Shown here: positions 1 to 63,830 of the stretch, one piece after another | Layout of the letters: each line of letters opens with the position of its first letter | Position numbering within the stretch: position 1 is the stretch's first letter | NCBI GenBank assembly: GCA_951406725.2 | Contig: OX597815.1 | Location: forward strand, 163,060,001-163,124,000 | DNA from: Octopus vulgaris | Lineage: Eukaryota | Reading direction: 5' to 3' | DNA: 64,000 nucleotides | Program-made: the position numbers and the translations under genes | Notes under the pieces: model-generated | What the model was told of the DNA's origin: nothing | Database searches by the model: none | Seen by the model: the letters and a program-made list of their open reading frames with translations, nothing else

Positions 1-87
1 TGTGATCCTCTCCGGATATTTGTCTTTAAAGACGGTCTCACACGGTTTGCCACCTGCAGATATTGTGAACCTAATACCAGTAACATT
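1..87 (+). CDS. TTLL6: Tubulin polyglutamylase (TTLL6/TTLL13-like) coding exon A, 5'-partial (starts before window)
   Basis: Frame 1 reads CDPLRIFVFKDGLTRFATCRYCEPNTSNI, matching the TTL-domain segment CDPLRIFVYxEGLARFAT. Ends at donor ATT|gtaagt (88), phase 0, joining in frame to the exon at 7164. Not in the ORF track. TTLL6 vs TTLL13 cannot be separated by eye. Confidence 0.92.
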
Positions 88-641
88 GTAAGTTCTATTG
101 TACTTCATTCTTTTTACTTCATCATATTTTTATTCCAATGTAGAATAAATGAAATCTTTTTTATCAAGCAGGATTGAATAATTTGCTATGTCCACCTATT
201 TTTAAGACAGTTTGGTAAAAGTTTGTGGAAGTCAACAGTGTACTGGAGCAGTTGTCATGTTTGGTTGAAGCTTAACTTGCATTCTTCTAGTATGACCACT
301 AAGCGAATTTGCAAACATAGGATGGTCATAGCTTGGCTGCTTTGATCTTAAGTTTGTTTGGTCAGAGCTGACTTGGTAATTCTTTTAATTTTGGTCATTC
401 CTTTAGATCTACTAGAACTAATCAAAATTTCTCAATGGTTTCTGCTACAACTTTGGAATCAATCTCTGTATTTGATAACAGTAATCATTATTCCTGCTTT
501 GACCAGAGTCTAGTTCTTTTTTAATTTATTATCCATACTAGAACCTTGATTCCAACAAATCCTTACACTGTAGTTCAGTTTCTACACTGACTATTGTTGG
601 TATTAACTATAGTTGGTCATGCAAATGACATTATACATATA

Positions 642-1187
642 CAGGGTTATTCAAAAAGAATGAACCAATTTCATTATGCAATATTTTAATAAGGAAAAGC
701 AATAGAAAACTCCAGCTAAGTCTCAAGTATTTACTCACAATCAACTTTCGTTTCCTGTCTTACTAGTGTTTAATGTGGCCACCACCAGCAGCAGCACAGT
801 CAACATCAATGCAATAAGAGAATTCCTCCCAGACATGTATCAGCATATCACGATCCACTGAGTACTTCTTTGGTGGTCTGGTTGAATGCTTTATCGAAGT
901 TTTTCCATTTCCCTTCTATGTCAATATCTTCTGGAATTGCCTCTAGCAAAATCAAATTTATTTCTTAGTTCCATAATGAACTTGCTTTTGATATGCTGAT
1001 ACGCGTCTTGGAGGAATTCTCTTATCACATTGATGTTGCCCACACTGCAGGTGATGGCCACATTGAATACTTGTAAGTCAGGAAATAAAAGTTGATTGTG
1101 ACTTGTGACTTAGCTGGAGTTTTCTATTGCTTTTCTTTATTAAAATATTGCGTAATGAAATCAGTTCATTCATATTGAATAACCCTG
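642..1187. mobile_element. Foldback/MITE with ~200-bp inverted arms, Tc1/mariner-derived
   Basis: Termini CAGGGTTATTCAA...TTGAATAACCCTG flanked by TA; arms ~642-848 and ~991-1187 are imperfect reverse complements. Confidence 0.85.
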
Positions 1188-1730
1188 TATATATATTAAA
1201 GATAAATTTCCAGATTTTGGTAGGCAGGGATACAGAATCCAAGTGGGTACCATAGTTGCTTTTACCAGTTATTAATGCTGGCTAACCTCAGTGAGTGTAT
1301 AAAAAACTCCAGTTAGTTTCATTTACTAACAAACATACTTAAGGAAACCTGATACTAAGCTTTAATACTACCACTCACCATTTAAGCATGGTCTACGTCT
1401 GCAGACTGCTAAAATTCATTGGACAACTAGTTATTTTATTTTTAACCAGCAGAGTTGAAATGGTCAGGATCTAGGTTATTTTGGGAACAATGACAACACC
1501 ACATGTATGATAGATTTCGGCTGGACTTGTATTTAATTTAGATTCTATTTGAACAATGCAGTTGACTCCACCCTAAAGAAGCAACAATTAACAATGAATA
1601 CACATAAAAGTGCAAATTTTGTTTTGTGCGTTAATTGCTACAGAAACATATACAAGTGTAGAAATAAAAAGAAGTAATTAACTGCTGAATAAAACTTGAT
1701 ATAAATCTCTGTTCTTCTTAATTATATTTT

Positions 1731-1774
<44 letters not shown>

Positions 1775-1777
<3 letters not shown>

Positions 1778-2790
1778 AGGTGCTAACAAAAATTTCTGGA
1801 CTAGTTATGTTTAATAAAAAATAACTTATTTATCTAAGTTTTAGCATTATCATCTTTGAAATAGTCACCTTGAGCAGCAATACGCTGGTCCCAGCATTCC
1901 TGCCACTTTTGGAATATGGTTGGGAAGTCATTTTCCATAAGCAAGTCAAAGATCTTCAGTGATTTGCTCTTGATCTCGACAACGGTGTTAAAACGGTGAC
2001 CTTTGAGCTGCATATGCATCTTGGTGCTAAATATGGCGAATATGCAGGAAGTGATACCATATTGTTTTTTGACGAGAAACTCTCGAGTGAGGAGAGCCGG
2101 TGACAGGGTGCATTGTTGTCATGAAGAATCCAATTCTTTGCACTCCACAGATCCAGACACTTTCCCTGAATGTCCTCCCTCAAATGCTTTAAAATGTCGT
2201 TGATTGCCCTCCAGCAATTTTCATGCATAAACTGATGAATCTTCTCCTCATTTTCGGTAGGGTGATGCTCATGGCAAGTCTTCCAGATCTCTCATCGTCT
2301 TCCAATTCTGAAGTGCCTGTGCCACTCAGAACATTGTATACGACCCTGATGTAATCTCCAGGGATACAGGCATCCAGCAACAGGACCTCCGTAATGCTAT
2401 GATAGACCGTGAAGTCTGGTGTAGCATGGTAAATTCCATTGTCTTGACCACGGTCGAACAATAATAAATAATAATAATAATAGTATACGACCCATTACCT
2501 TGTTGCCATAAGCATGCCAGAGTATGCTGAATGTCTCTGTAGCAGACCTCCCAAGTTTAAAATTTCATGTTGGCGCTTTGATCCAGCTTCCTGTCCATGA
2601 TAAAAATCGTAGACTACAGCATATATATAACAAAAACACAAATTTCACAACTTGCAAAATAAACACAGCAATGTCACTTGGTCTACTGCCTCATGAAGGT
2701 TGCTGCTAGCTTTCATTGTGCACTCAACCATGTGCTGCCATCAGTTGGCATGTTGCAGAACTAGTCTGGAACATTTTGATACCACCTCAT
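1775..2790 (-). mobile_element. Degenerate mariner transposon
   Basis: Minus-strand broken frames give WILHDNNAPCH, AYSPYLAP and FQKWQECWDQRIAAQGDYF; imperfect ~30-bp TIRs at ~1775-1806 and ~2759-2790; frameshifts and deletions. Confidence 0.85.
2347..2482 (+). mobile_element. 5'-truncated non-LTR retrotransposon 3' end (RTE-like) inserted in the mariner relic
   Basis: Reads DVISRDTGIQQQDLRNAMIDREVWCSMVNSIVLTTVEQ* followed by an (AAT)n tail; 11-bp TSD GTATACGACCC at 2336-2346 and 2483-2493. Confidence 0.8.
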
Positions 2791-2792
2791 TA

Positions 2793-2899
2793 GAAGCAGC
2801 TCAAGGGATATAAACAATATCAAACACACATACACAATGCATGTGTTACATATTTTGTGTATGTGTGTTTGATATCGTGTATATTTCATGGGCTGCTTC
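2793..2899. repeat. Imperfect hairpin, ~45-bp arms
   Basis: GAAGCAGCTC...ATATCAAACACACATACACAA (2793-2837) is mirrored by TTGTGTATGTGTGTTTGATAT...GGGCTGCTTC (2855-2899). Confidence 0.75.
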
Positions 2900-2973
2900 A
2901 TATTTGAATTTTTTGTCCATGGCATGAAACATTGAGACATACTAGCTGATGGTTCTTACACCATTTTACATAT

Positions 2974-3391
2974 AGGCAGAGGAGTGGCTGTGTGGTAAGT
3001 AGCTTGCTTATGAACCATAATGTTCTGGGTTCAATCCCACTGCTTGGCACCTTGGGCAAGTGTCTTTTACTATAGCCTCGGGTCTACCAAATCCTTGTGA
3101 GTGGATTTGGTAGACGGAAACTGAAAGGAGCCCATTGTATATGTATGTGTGTGTGTGCGTGCGTGTGTGTGTGTGTGTGTATTTGTGTGTCTATGTTTGT
3201 CCCCCCAACATTGCTTGACAACCGATGCCGGTATGTTTACTTTCCTGTAACTTAGCAGTTCGGCAAAACAGACCGACAGAATAAGTACTAGGCTTACAAA
3301 GAATAAGTTCTGGGGTCGATTTACTCGACTAAAGGCAGTGCTCCAGTATGGCCACAGTCAAATGACTGAAACAAGTAAAAGAGTAAAAGAG
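2974..3391 (+). mobile_element. SINE family A (tRNA head, CORE-like body, internal (TG/TA)n, (GTAAAAGA)n tail)
   Basis: A-box TGGCTGTGTGG, B-box GGTTCAATCCC, CORE-like CACCTTGGGCAAGTGTCTT. About 20 full or partial copies in the window; partials at ~10440-10757(-), 11470-11650(+), 12385-12790(-), 20830-21300(+), 21770-22110(+), 25190-25345(-), 27583-27730(-), 43990-44150(-), 46545-46790(+), 53275-53415(+), 54453-54610(-). Confidence 0.9.
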
Positions 3392-3676
3392 TTATAGCCT
3401 TAGAGGGCAATTTAGCTTACATCAGGCCTCATTTCAAACACGCAGTATTGACAATTCACAAAAATGACAAAACATCGATGTCTATTGTTCCTGAATGGGA
3501 CCAGATGCAATTATCTTGCTTGCTTATGGCTTTTAGGTGTTTTAACACCAGGCAAATTGATGAGAATATATTCCCTTATGCCTATAAGTGCAGCCTACAC
3601 ACAAACTAGCAGAACACATTGAATAAAACACTTGAATAAAATAAATAATGATGAGCAAAATGGGTAGTAGTAGTAA

Positions 3677-3707
<31 letters not shown>

Positions 3708-4016
3708 TTAAACAAAATGTAAAAGTATGTCGGTGCATAACTTTTGGCCAACTCTGTATACAGCGAGAAGGAGTGGGGGAGGGTAAAGCCATAAAGAATG
3801 AGGGTGCTTTTTCAACAATATCATAGAAAATAAATATCGTTGAAAATGTTTCTTCCCTCTTTATGACATTTTGTGTATCAATCTGTGATTAATATACCAA
3901 ATTTACTACTTGGTGATTAACTCTGCATTTATAATCTGTGCCTGTCACAAGAGAAAATAACAACCTGTGTGTATTACTGCAATCTTTACAGTGAGTACTT
4001 TAAAAGATGTTTACCT

Positions 4017-4245
4017 ATTTCTTTACTACCCACAAGGGGCTAAACACAGAGAGGACAAACAAGGACAGACAAATGGATTAAGTCGATTATATGGACCCCA
4101 GTGCGTAACTGGTACTTATTTAATTGACTCCGAAAGGATGAAAGGCAAAGTCGACCTCGGCGGAATTTGAACTCAGAACGTAGCGGCAGACGGAATACCG
4201 CTAAACATTTCGCCCGGTGTGCTAACGATTCTGCCAGCTCGCTGC
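4017..4245 (-). mobile_element. SINE family B1 (~230 bp, tRNA-derived)
   Basis: Minus strand GAGCTGGCAGAATCGTTAGC...GAGTTCAAATTCCGCCGAGGTCGAC...CCCCTTGTGGGTAGTAAAGAAAT; imperfect 19-bp TSD at 3998-4016 and 4246-4264 (17/19). Confidence 0.9.
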
Positions 4246-4731
4246 CTTTAAGAGATGTATACCTTGCTTTACTTAATAATCTCATATTTTCCTTCATTTT
4301 GGCTCTGTTGAAGATGTCATTGTGTGGGTTGCTTCCTATCTATTCACTTGATCAATTGATCAATTGGTAAAATTGAACCATGAAAGCACCCAAATGCATA
4401 GCAGAAACAACTGTAAGCCTATAAATAAATAAATGTATACAACCCATTATTTCTATGATGGTTTCTCTCACTAAAGATTATGTATGTGTTCAGCTTTGCC
4501 GAACAACCTGCACAAATGGTTTGTGTATAGTATATTATCTTGTAGCTTTGAAATTTCAAAGATGTGATTGTTTATTTTTATGACACTGCAGGGTAGGTGT
4601 AAGAGGCTGGATCTGGCCAGTTTGAACAAAAAACAGGTAAAAATATTTGAGCCGGATATAGCCTGTGCAAATGTTAAAGGGTGAAATTGATATAGTTTTG
4701 TTTGCTGAGATTATAAACAAAGCCATGGTCT

Positions 4732-4787
4732 GGGTGTTTCTAGCTGATGAGACACAACAAGTTGAAACACCAGTGTCCCAGAATCCC
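4732..4787 (+). ncRNA. Type I hammerhead ribozyme motif (intron 1, sense)
   Basis: CUGAUGA 4744-4750; stem II GAC/GUU with loop ACAACAA; GAAA 4764-4767; stem III ACAC/GUGU; GUC triplet with cleavage after 4777; stem I UUCUAG/CCAGAA (one A.C mismatch) extended by GGG/CCC. Confidence 0.78.
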
Positions 4788-5120
4788 TTTCACCAATACT
4801 GTGAATGTGTTAAGAACATGGTGGGATTGTAAAAGGGAGAAGTTGTTATCCTGTGACATATACAACAGCAACTAGCACATTTTCATTTGAATCTACTTAT
4901 GCAAGTCATAGCTTTAATTGAAAAACCTTTAATCAATATTTCATGTAAGTTTATATTCCAAACACTAGCTTAATAAGAAGAAAGCTGTTTTACTAATCTT
5001 TTATTATTTTGAAAATGAACGAAACAATGGCTGTGTATTTCCGCAGAAATACGGTCGGAAAAGGGTTAAGGAACAGGTTGCCATGAAATTTCTGCTATGT
5101 ATTTACTCTGTAATTATCTC

Positions 5121-5163
<43 letters not shown>

Positions 5164-5475
5164 CACTACTACTGCTGCTGCTGTTGTTGTTGTTGTTAAG
5201 CAACAAGATGGGTAAGGGTGATAGGTGATGGTCTAGGGCTTAGAGACAGGAGATCCCAGACCTTGGAAAAAAAAACTTTGGTCGTCTTGTTGCAGTCGAA
5301 GACTCTTCGTTGATGCCCAACACGACTGGGAGGTGGCCCTCGAAGTCGCTGGAAATGGAGATCTCCAGGTCCAAATTCTTGAACGGCTGCTTCTGCTGCT
5401 GCTACTACTACTACTACTACTACTACTACTGCTAACACCACTGCTGCCACCACCACCACCACCACCACCACCATT
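5121..5475. repeat. Compound trinucleotide tracts (CTA/CTG/TTG and CTA/CCA) flanking a ~190-bp unique segment
   Basis: Direct reading. Confidence 0.9.
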
Positions 5476-6744
5476 TTGGCTAAGTTTGTTGTTTAGTCCA
5501 CAAGTCACCTCTTAGCTGAATGAACAGTTCAATAATCAGAGATAATCCTCTCATGATTATCACATCTTATTTTCAAGCATTGTGTCAAGAACTACTTTAT
5601 TCAATCTGCTTTTTTTTTCCTTCTTTTTTTTTTCCTAAGATGAGAAGGTGTAATATGAAGAAGTTTTGGCGAAAAAATACTTTTCAGATATTTAGTTATG
5701 TTCTGTCTGCACCCAGATTTCTTAAAGAAAAGAGAGAATACATTAGGTTATGTAATATTTCATAACCATAAAAAAAGGCAGGATGATAATGGCTGGAATT
5801 CTTTTGATCATTGTTCTGCTCAATCAGGGTTGACCCGGGGCTAAAAAACAAGAACAGCAATGAACAGGAATTTTGAAGTAATCACATTCTAAATGTACGT
5901 TGTGTTAGTAGTTCCATATGAAGTATCTAAAATTATATAAAATAAAAACAAATTGATTGCAATTGAACTATTTGTACAAGAGTATGTTCAGCCTTTAGTA
6001 GAGAAATAAGGGCTTTCCAACACAGCTAAGTAATTTTACGTCTCTCATAAATTTAATGAGATTTAATGAGAAATTTGCCGTGGATTTCTTATGGAACATC
6101 TTTGTTCTTCTAGAAAGATAAAAACCAATATGGTATAGGTTAAATTAGTCTTTATTCTAGCATACCTTTCAAAGACTATTTGGAAATTTGGATTTAGCTT
6201 AGAATGAGGTTGGTACTTGCAGATTGTTTGAAGAAAGAAACTGAGGAAGAAGGAGAAAAAAAAATGTGCAGCCTTTGATATATAGAGAAGAGATAAATCT
6301 GTGTAACTAAGAATACAGACAGGGCCTGTAATAATAATCCTTTAGATAAATTAGAGAGGTTTGAAGGTAGAGAGAAAACCTTAAATTGGCATAATGGTGT
6401 TTGATGAGGATTTTGCTAATGGATGCAACTACATTTCAGTAGTTTTGTAAGAAGTCAATTTACCAGTTCAAAAGGTTTGCATTTATTCTCTTTGAGGAGA
6501 GTCTTGCGAGGAATTTTGGTACCATAATTTCTCAAAATGTGAATCTTACACACACATATATTTACAAGCTTTGATTCCATCTTCAATCCACTTTATACTT
6601 TAAGTATGAAATAAAAATGTCTAATTGGAATCATAACTAAAATTGCCGTATTTCTTATTTCTTATTTGTAACCGTTGTTCCATTTATACTTTATTACATA
6701 ATACGAACTTACATCCTCCACCATTTCATCTTGCTCTCCTTCTG

Positions 6745-6750
6745 TATCTG

Positions 6751-6801
<51 letters not shown>

Positions 6802-6842
6802 ATCTATCTACCTATCTATCTATCTATCTATCTATCTACTAC

Positions 6843-6911
<69 letters not shown>

Positions 6912-6930
6912 CATCCATCCATCCATCCAT
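6745..6930. repeat. (ATCT)n/(ATCC)n microsatellite
   Basis: Direct reading; ~230 nt upstream of exon B. Confidence 0.95.
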
Positions 6931-7163
6931 CTGTCTATCTCTCTTTCTCCTTCTCCTTCTCATTTATTTCTCCTGTTTACTTTTATTTTTCCCTGCCTGT
7001 CTCTCTTTCCTTCGTTGGTTTATTTTTGCCTCTTATCTGTTGTTTTACATAATTATATCCTGTCCAAACTTTACCTCATGGCTATTTCTCTCATTATCCT
7101 TTTCTCCTCCATGTTCCCAAACAATCCGCTTACACTCTCTCTCTTAACGTCTTCCATTTCCAG

Positions 7164-7249
7164 GATAATGTCTACATGCATCTCACTAACTACTCAATCA
7201 ATAAACACAGTGAAGATTTTGTCCGAGATGACAATGCTGGCAGCAAAAG
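7164..7249 (+). CDS. TTLL6: TTLL6/13-like coding exon B
   Basis: Acceptor ccatttccag|, 86 nt reading DNVYMHLTNYSINKHSEDFVRDDNAGSK(R) with the TTL hallmark HLTNYSINK; donor AAG|gtaagt; phase 0 to 2. Not in the ORF track. Confidence 0.95.
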
Positions 7250-25906: not shown

Positions 25907-26132
25907 ACGTATCAGCACAGTGAATAAATACATGAGGGACCATGGCTATGATGTTGACAAACTCTGGCGAGACATCGACGATGTTATCGTTAAAACAATT
26001 ATATCAGCACACGCTGTACTACGGCATAACTATCGGACATGCTTTCAGAATCACACCAAGACGAGTGCCTGCTTTGAAATACTTGGAATCGATGTCATGC
26101 TTGACAAAAAACTCAAGCCATTGATAATCGAG
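25907..26132 (+). CDS. TTLL6: TTLL6/13-like coding exon C (catalytic FEILGxD...E)
   Basis: Acceptor ttcctaacag|, 226 nt completing R then RISTVNKYMRDHGYDVDKLWRDIDDVIVKTIISAHAVLRHNYRTCFQNHTKTSACFEILGIDVMLDKKLKPLIIE; donor GAG|gtacac; phase 2 to 0. Confidence 0.95.
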
Positions 26133-37821: not shown

Positions 37822-39032
37822 TTAGTTAGTTAGTTAGTTAGTTAATTTGGCTCAAAAGCAAATAGCAAGGCCATGTAGGGAGACATGGAGTTAAGTACAG
37901 GGTGGTGTTCATGTAAAGAGTTCAGGCCACTTGAGGTCCAGGGAGGCTTTGAACAAAGCGGTCGTTGGCATCTTCACCATCTCATCTGGCAGCTTGTTCC
38001 ACGGATCCGCAACCTGGACGGAGAAAGCTCCTCTCCTTTGATTGAGATGAAATCGTCGCAGGTAGAGCTTTTCGGAATGACCCCGCAGCCGACGCTCTGG
38101 AGCAGGAGTGAAGAACAGCTCTTTCGAGAGGTTACGCTTCCCGCTTATGATGTTGTGGGCGAGAATGAGATCACCACGGCGGCGGCGTTTTTCAAGAGAA
38201 TAAAGGTCGAGCGTCCTCAGCCTTTCTTCGTAGGACAAATTTTTGAGACCATGAACCAGGCGGGTAGCCAGCCTCTGGACTCTTTCGAGGTGCTGTATGT
38301 CATTGAGGAGATAAGGAGAAGAGGCTTGAATCCCATACTCCAATATGGGTCTCACCAGCGTGACATAGAGTGGCAGGAATATGGCTGCTGTGAGCACTCC
38401 GAATGACCGTCGAATCAAAAACAGAATTCCGCGCGCTTTGTTGGCAGCATGGACGCACTGGGCCGAAGGCGAAAAGGAGGAATCCACCAAGATACCCAGG
38501 TCCTTTACCTGATCGGTCCTCTCCAGCAGCAGACGACCCGGCTCGAAATCAAGTTGAGTTGCAGGAGTAGAGCCGACAGGCAGATGACAGCACTTTGACA
38601 CGTTCAGACACAGGTCCCAATCGTTAGACCACTTCCAAATTTGGTGGAGGCATCGACGAAGATCCTCTATACTACCGTGAGGAGCGACCAGTTTGATATC
38701 GTCGGCAAATAGAAGGGTGTGTTGCGTGAGGTCATCGGGCAAGTCATTTATGAAGACTAAGAACAACAAGGGCCCAAGCACTGAACCTTGAGGCATGCCA
38801 CTGCTCGCACTGGAGACGTCGGACCGCGAACCATTAACTTGAACTTGGAAGGAGCGATCTGAGAGGAAGGCACCAACCCATCGTACAATATCCGGATGGA
38901 AACTATATGCTTGAAGCTTGACAAGTAGTAGGCGGTGGTTTACCGAGTCAAAAGCTTTGGCAAAGTCCAATAAAACGATGTCAACAGCATCACTATCATC
39001 GAGGATGCGCGTCACCAATTCTTCCATAAATA
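37822..39032 (-). mobile_element. 5'-truncated CR1-group LINE with uninterrupted RT/C-terminal ORF (37909-39027, 372 aa)
   Basis: LDFAKAFDSVNH, GMPQGSVLGPLLFLVFINDL, LLFADDIKL, RLRGHS...WNKLP; ~65-nt 3' UTR and (TAAC)n tail at 37822-37845. Confidence 0.93.
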
Positions 39033-39721
39033 AAAGCTAAATGCTACTCAAATCACACCACCTAAATATTTTTAAAAAAGAACACAAAGACAGAGTGAAT
39101 AAAGTGATACTAAATATAATCTGCTTGAAAAAAAATGGTTAGTTACAGTTGGGACATCTTTGACTTAGACGAAGCATCAGCAAAATGCTGGCTGCACCAC
39201 TAAAACAAATTCAAGGTAATTTTTCATTCAGGTGTTTTATACAGAAACACTTGAGAGTTGCAGTGTACCAGTGACTGACTGGACTACTAACAGATAGCAA
39301 AACCACACATTTTACACTACAGTAGAAAACATACTACCAATTATAAACTTACATTATGGTCAGTACATTATTATGATGCCAGATGCAAGCATAGCATAGT
39401 GGTTAAACAGTTAGCTTCACAATAATGAAATTTGGGTTCAATCCCATGGCAAGGTATCAGGTAAGAGTCTTTTATCATAAGTTTTAATCAGCCCAAGCCT
39501 TGCTTGTAAAGTTGAATTGAGAGAAAGTTTAAAAGACTGTCAGGTTTACTATACCTGTAATTCAAAGGGGTTGATTTGCCATACTTGACATGTTGATTTT
39601 GTATCAGGATTATGTTAACACTTTTGATGCCAATCCACCTGTGACCACCTCTGCTTCTCTGATATAAACTTCCTATTTAAAGCGATTTAAATCAAAACCT
39701 TTTATCAAAATTTCAAGTTAA

Positions 39722-63185: not shown

Positions 63186-63830
63186 ATATAATGTTTTGGC
63201 TGATATACCCTCCAGCCTTCATCAGGTGTCTTGGGGAAATTTTGAACCTGGGTTCTCATTCCTTGTTGTTTATTGTTGTTGTTATTATTATTATTATTCA
63301 GGTCACTGCCTAGAATCGAACTTGGAATCTTGATGTTAGTAGCCGGCGCTCTTAACCACTATGCCTTATGCCCGTGGGCAATTATGGAGTGAATTTTAGG
63401 GCTTATAAATTTAATATTCTCCTATCCTACCTTAATACCAGTTCCCATATGCTGTTCATATCTGCACTCGGTCTGCTTAGGAGTTTGTTGTGTTCTTTTA
63501 GTTTTTGTATTTTCCAGTGGTGTTCTCTGTCTATTATTTTAACTTCATCCCACAAGAGGAAGTGGTCTCCATTTTCCCATACATGATCCTATACCCGATT
63601 TGTCAATATCTCCCCATGTCACAGCTTTGCGATGTTCCTCTACCCTTATTTTGAGGAGGCGGCATGTTTCACCTTTGTATAACCTATCACAGCTGCATGG
63701 GATGGAGTACACATAGTTCTTAGTCATATTCTTTTCTATTGGTGGTTTTACTTGAAGGAGATATTTGCGAAGTGTTGTATTACTTTTGAATGCTGTCCTG
63801 ATGTCATATGGATATAATAGAGTACCCAAA
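63186..63830 (-). mobile_element. Penelope-like element 3' remnant (GIY-YIG endonuclease, tRNA-like cassette, decayed hammerhead)
   Basis: Minus-strand VYSIPCSCDRLYKGETCRLLKIRVEEHRKA (PLE-type GIY-YIG), then after a frameshift LWDEVKIIDREHHWKIQKLKE, stop near 63427; tRNA-like A/B boxes at 63301-63372; CUGAUGA-A-GGCUG..CAGCC at 63198-63225. Confidence 0.8.

Follow-up and report, generated by a model that had tools for sequence, protein, structure and literature searches.

Metazoan non-LTR retrozymes are described as units of ~170-400 nt with a GC content under 45%, and Penelope-like elements are named only as strong candidates for their mobilisation (PMC7229834). A 2026 preprint derives retrozymes from Penelope terminal repeats, supports mobilisation by Penelope through co-occurrence and phylogeny, finds many copies to be solo, and gives the share of frog retrozyme copies that overlap introns as 42-44% (10.64898/2026.07.22.740005). 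Penelope-like insertions can themselves carry an inverted, 5'-truncated copy and a tail of 30-40 bp at one end only (10.1101/2021.04.23.441226). For metazoan type I hammerheads, a dimer mechanism has been described, together with a highly conserved G10.1-C11.1 pair and a U3-A8 core variant in a Schistosoma Penelope-like element (PMC4209133). Among cephalopods, 235 Hammerhead_1 matches have been counted in the giant squid genome (PMC6962438). Our literature search found no paper describing octopus retrozymes; the supplement of PMC7229834, which lay outside that search, may include cephalopods.

Here we followed up a hammerhead motif at positions 4732-4787 of a 64,000-nt stretch of Octopus vulgaris DNA (the window). 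The motif is real, and it is probably the type I hammerhead of an old 329-nt non-LTR retrozyme, of which the window holds a decayed solo copy that is truncated at the 5' end and predicted to be inactive.

The motif and its host intron

Pfam TTL matches lie on the forward strand at C2:163031658, 163045126 and 163059941 (the last reaching into window positions 1-87) and at window position 25917, and a motif search placed an exon at 7164-7249. All four of the host exons tested match PF03133, the nearest solved structure for the gene product is TTLL6, and one exon is 100% identical to an Octopus sinensis protein named TTLL6-like. The intron carrying the hammerhead follows codon 314 of an 893-aa TTLL6-like protein. 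Since three coding exons map 5' of it and residues 1-169 lie further upstream, it is intron 4 or a later one; a further 20 kb upstream contained no match to the exons for these residues at the identity filter applied. The original prediction had put the motif on the sense strand of TTLL intron 1, of which the strand and the gene hold and the intron number does not. Several retroelement traces were seen elsewhere in this gene region: a GIY-YIG remnant (L076) in the preceding intron, a weak one at window 63563-63757, and an RVT_1 match (E 4e-23) in a 374-aa frame on the reverse strand at window 37909-39036, which marks a retroelement in a later intron.

The features discussed below are as follows.

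88..7163, forward strand: GT..AG host intron in the TTLL6-like gene, flanked by exons 1-87 and 7164-7249
2848-2981: 5' part of the family B copy, with an inverted piece at 2789-2847
3393..3619, forward strand: family B retrozyme copy (351-nt unit), with a U3-A8 hammerhead at ~3434-3496 that has lost G12
4690..4910 (about), forward strand: 5'-truncated solo copy of family A, from unit position ~97 to position 18 of the next unit
4732..4737, forward strand: distal 5' arm of stem I (GGG) and 5' strand of loop I (UGU; UAC in the family majority)
4738..4743, forward strand: 5' arm of stem I, with G>A at 4742 giving an A.C mismatch at the second pair
4744..4750, forward strand: core C3-A9 (CUGAUGA), intact
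4751..4763, forward strand: stem-loop II, 3 bp long and with a G.U pair at 10.1-11.1 (the majority has 4 bp and a G-C pair), with T>A at 4760 and C>T at 4763
4764..4777, forward strand: G12-A14, stem III (its palindrome interrupted through G>A at 4772) and C17; the ancestral cleavage is predicted to fall after 4777
4778..4787, forward strand: 3' arm of stem I, loop I U and distal CCC

The core elements CUGAUGA (4744-4750), GAAA (4764-4767) and GUC (C17 at 4777) supply C3-A9, G12-A14, A15.1-U16.1 and H17 in order. Three helices can form around them, with helix I open-ended, and 11 of the 13 core-proximal pairs are formable in the window copy compared with 13 of 13 in the family majority. Rfam cmscan matched RF00163 Hammerhead_1 at 4738-4783 over its full length (model 1-45), with every core base present; the search covered 801 nt and scored 27.4 bits (E 2e-4), short of the gathering score of 34. 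At gathering level the whole window gave no match. Much of what had been read from the letters alone was borne out, namely the ordered core with three formable stems, the UGU/U loop in stem I closed by GGG/CCC, and a stem III one change from a palindrome. The covariance match suggested as a check exists, albeit under the threshold, and the stems are less complete than described: a non-standard A4742.C4779 pair adjoining the cleavage site in stem I, flagged by cmscan, had been overlooked.

The core pattern in a loose form matches 17 times in the window, and 10 of 100 shuffles reach as many, so there is no excess over chance. The predicted minimum-energy fold of the 56-mer is a competing helix (4733-4740 with 4764-4771) and not the hammerhead, and its stability does not exceed that of shuffles (z -1.15). 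It is the paralogues, and not the core pattern, that exclude a chance match.

An old repeat family and its predicted ancestral ribozyme

The surroundings at ~4700-4870 had been described as matching no other repeat in the window. They are single-copy there, but genome-wide they form a repeat that had been overlooked. A genome search with 4600-4950 gave at least 40 other places among the 41 matches listed, at 69-86% identity (40 scored of 1322 candidates); at five of these 40 the match is confined to an adjacent, different repeat. Window 4514-4688, bordering the retrozyme copy on its 5' side, is occupied by a very high-copy repeat of another kind. A 17-mer taken unchanged from the window had 27 exact matches in the genome compared with 0 for the reversed control. 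Paralogues of the motif thus exist, and two of them keep a perfect palindromic stem III. DNA and pattern searches put the copy number of this family A roughly at 350-1000, depending on the divergence assumed.

An alignment of 60 copies yielded a unit of 329 nt with a GC content of 0.40 and one hammerhead. Nine of 75 loci read through the whole interval from hammerhead to hammerhead, and profile mapping found more than three units at one locus (L015), an array that Tandem Repeats Finder did not detect. Duplicate loci (11, then 4) were left out; alignment A3 leaves out 8 of 38 copies as broken or duplicate and adds L030. The window copy has a ~20-nt deletion directly 5' of the hammerhead and a 3' end of the short class described below, and a search with the family model for a partner across the window and 50 kb upstream (114 kb of gene region) found none. 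With a second copy as query, the best relatives were only 70-84% identical; family A therefore appears to be old and extinct, with no young copy among those seen. A common 3-nt deletion in loop II (15 of 69 copies) and 18 non-CpG sites with a frequent second allele point to more than one source element.

The family majority would have been a well-formed ribozyme, with all 13 core-proximal pairs, a 6-bp stem I, a 4-bp stem II and a 10-nt palindromic stem III. CpG decay had been proposed for two sites, and the copies agree: among 63 copies, the C11.1-G12 step reads TG in 22, CA in 15 and CG in 15, and the CG step of loop III reads TG in 22, CA in 20 and CG in 7. Two genomic copies, as against 0 in the control, keep the intact form at both steps, and these score 32.6 and 30 bits in Rfam. 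Likewise, the proposed kinship with dimer-forming hammerheads was supported by modelling. Two linked majority copies are predicted to fold as a double hammerhead, which is the minimum-energy fold and lies 0.75 kcal/mol from the ensemble. This folding fits the dimer mechanism of metazoan type I motifs.

Covariation within family A, put forward earlier as a check on the stems, did not rise above shuffles: 81% of cells were paired compared with 80.3% after shuffling, and 159 of 500 shuffles reached the observed number of two-sided changes. After correction for composition, changes fell below expectation both in the core (49 observed compared with 67 expected; 15 compared with 27.5) and in the stems (206 compared with 232; 43 compared with 65), a test that weakened the alternative of equal divergence in core and flanks. 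Selection among source elements together with sampling bias can explain this deficit, as may selection on some inserted copies; it is a signal of the whole family and nothing specific to the window locus.

The original prediction had overlooked a second hammerhead fossil, at 3434-3496. It lies in a dead copy of another family, B, in the same intron 1.3 kb upstream of the family A hammerhead, and this copy is split by another repeat. Families A and B share their layout and the UAC/U loop in stem I (UGU/U in the window copy of family A) and differ in their stems, including the palindromic stem III. All 23 other aligned family B copies carry U3 and A8 in place of C3 and G8. The genome holds 506 first-look candidates for this family, which, if the reading is true, would be a further hammerhead family of canonical build, with full helices and with U3-A8 fixed.

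Other hammerheads were encountered in this genome. L032, L033, L036 (~1501-1608) and L082 (oriented 2810, 3057) represent further families that have a long stem II and occur in inverted pairs; of these, L082 has the position that a Penelope terminal repeat should have, downstream of a GIY-YIG frame. The best genomic match to Rfam Hammerhead_1, at 45.5 bits, is L031 1501-1547 (C5:6546758-6546804), which is without significant similarity to the 35 other loci compared and is a better candidate than the window copy for an active or conserved ribozyme.

Proposed mobilisation of the family and probable fate of the window copy

The ends of family A copies suggest how they were inserted. In 71 matched pieces the 5' ends vary, while the 3' ends cluster at 140-169 nt (36 pieces) and 190-199 nt (18 pieces) past the cleavage site, that is, in two classes ~40 nt apart. 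Both strands are represented at 15 of 75 distinct loci, in every case head-to-head. Where both arms of an inverted pair fell into a defined class, all ten pairs combined one short arm (141-157 nt) with one long arm (190-197 nt). Loci with one strand numbered 37 short, 17 long and 6 other; from these frequencies, the probability that ten pairs would all be discordant is ~0.43^10 = 2e-4. Family A loci thus show the 5' truncation, the inverted 5' copy and the one-sided tail of 30-40 bp known from Penelope-like insertions, and the two 3' end classes, one of each per scorable inverted pair, point to mobilisation of the Penelope type.

Elements encoding reverse transcriptase (RT) followed by GIY-YIG exist in this genome, and a young family with RT plus a GIY-YIG domain at the C terminus has open frames of 781 aa (L080, L085 and many more). 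An autonomous partner was looked for next to 75 loci of family A and 20 of family B, and none was found. With 25 RT/GIY-YIG frames of this genome as tblastn queries, a search of short flanks with young elements only, none of the 75 family A loci had a match within ~1.5 kb, and the family A profile had no significant match to, and no DNA in common with, 30 GIY-YIG loci. We infer that family A was non-autonomous and owed its copying, in trans, to a Penelope-like element of older date. On balance we favour the view that octopus retrozymes bear a Penelope-like integration footprint with two fixed 3' ends and no coding body. If true, this would document directly, from the genome, that non-LTR retrozymes are mobilised in trans by the RT and GIY-YIG endonuclease of Penelope, and the start of copying on the retrozyme RNA would be mapped to points ~155 and ~192 nt beyond the cleavage site. 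The pairing of short with long 3' ends would form a footprint independent of co-occurrence and phylogeny and offer exact ends for a priming test.

The same anatomy, in which 5' ends vary, 3' ends are fixed and head-to-head pairs bear a one-sided tail, could also be that of a pseudo-LTR from an old Penelope-like element that was autonomous; the locus would then be a short 3' fragment of it and still a dead insertion. Hammerheads are typical of such repeats (PMC4209133), and retrozymes and Penelope repeats are related in frogs (10.64898/2026.07.22.740005). This origin is nonetheless unlikely for family A, given that flanking RT and GIY-YIG frames were absent from the ~1.5 kb searched at all 75 loci, that 5' extensions enter the family A unit again, that L015 has more than three equal units, and that helix I of the hammerhead has the canonical 6 bp, helix II has 4 bp and helix III is full, unlike in the minimal form.

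On the preferred reading of a non-LTR retrozyme, two hammerheads of an ancestral tandem transcript would have folded jointly, held to each other by the 10-nt palindrome in stem III, and would have cut the transcript into unit-length RNA, which was likely circularised. A Penelope-like RT and GIY-YIG endonuclease would then probably have copied the unit RNA into new sites, leaving 5' ends that vary, 3' ends that are fixed, and inverted pairs in which one arm has a ~40-nt tail. One copy would have entered the TTLL6-like intron on the sense strand and without a partner, decayed since, mostly by CpG and G/C loss, and would now be passively transcribed with the pre-mRNA and spliced out uncut.

Within 4733-4787, six changes from the family majority (at 4736, 4737, 4742, 4760, 4763 and 4772) have altered loop I, introduced the stem I mismatch, shortened stem II with an initial G.U and broken the palindrome; outside the hammerhead, 20 of 141 non-CpG positions differ. 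The predicted duplex energy of the palindrome is -6.8 kcal/mol in the window copy compared with -16.9 in the majority. The predicted gap to the active fold is 14 kcal/mol as a monomer and 21 as a dimer, compared with 5 and 0.75 for the majority; the model behind these energies treats secondary structure and leaves aside tertiary contacts and Mg2+, its dimers were joined by a poly-A linker, and the figures are for comparative use only. Contigs of related sequencing runs cover the site at 96-98% identity, the positions of the differences not being placeable from them. One contig of 169 nt spans 4667-4835 unbroken and with no differences; it comes from run X1, which is RNA only by guess, at a depth of 2.3, and contigs cannot show ends. 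Against the original suggestion that the motif could cut the pre-mRNA, this solo copy with six damaging changes is predicted to be unable to do so, and the locus is likely dead. By itself it is of little consequence.

It is improbable that the hammerhead has been co-opted to cut the TTLL6-like pre-mRNA slowly and under regulation, with the 8-bp helix serving to switch it off. The core is intact, the orientation is sense, 11 of 13 core-proximal pairs are formable, the family shows a deficit of core changes, and domesticated intronic hammerheads exist in amniotes (PMC6155905). Yet an intact core is unremarkable here, since it is kept in 11 of 61 other copies and, by a second count, in 4 of 23 (~18%); the first count, like the CpG comparison, leaves out the window copy and L034, L072 and L073, which were picked on the core, and the second leaves out 3 of 26 loci with short alignments. 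The A.C pair in stem I, the G.U at 10.1-11.1, the short stem II, the altered loop I and the broken palindrome likewise speak against a functional ribozyme, as does the lack of a partner in 114 kb. The competing helix had been proposed to hold the ribozyme inactive, and it is indeed the predicted minimum-energy fold. It arises from the two loop I changes in the window copy, cannot form in the family majority and is complete in only 4 of 65 copies, so that, judged from the aligned copies, it is an accident of decay, and a designed switch is not supported. A working intronic switch is a separate reading and much less likely than a Penelope-like footprint.

A chance match in A+T-rich intron DNA, for which the score below the Rfam gathering level, the commonness of loose core patterns and the unexceptional fold stability might speak, is refuted by the two intact-form copies (0 in the control), by the complete pairing and perfect palindrome of the family majority, and by the recurrence of the layout with other stems in family B.

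Comparison with known systems

Compared with RF00163, the window copy (27.4 bits) and even the two best-kept copies stay under the gathering score. The domesticated intronic hammerheads of amniotes (RECK and others; PMC6155905) resemble the window copy in being intronic, type I, on the sense strand and of retroelement origin. As described there, they are few and conserved across species, whereas the window copy is one of hundreds that are decaying and its stems and loops are damaged.

The pseudo-LTR hammerheads of Penelope-like elements are also of type I, with a palindromic helix III region and a predicted dimer, and occur as opposite-strand pairs and mostly as solo copies (PMC4209133). Family A differs from them in that no flanking RT/GIY-YIG frame was found, and in having helices of canonical and not minimal size, with no extra base before helix II.

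The closest likeness is to the metazoan non-LTR retrozymes. Like these, family A has a short, low-GC unit with one canonical type I hammerhead, no coding frame, and both tandem and solo copies, and it co-exists with Penelope-like elements (PMC7229834). Head-to-tail repeats are a property of the family, and the window locus is a solo derivative. The dependence of helix III on a dimer is shared with axolotl retrozyme families (PMC7229834). Differences are that family A is apparently extinct and mostly solo, that its palindrome measures 10 nt, and that its RNA circle is one we infer. Its frequent head-to-head pairs with a one-sided tail also set it apart, such pairs going unmentioned in the main text of PMC7229834, in which the word 'inverted' has 0 occurrences. 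Taken together, the sequence features of family A fit those of non-LTR retrozymes, and the modest gain from this family is carried by the pattern of its ends and by the U3-A8 family beside it, and not by the window copy.
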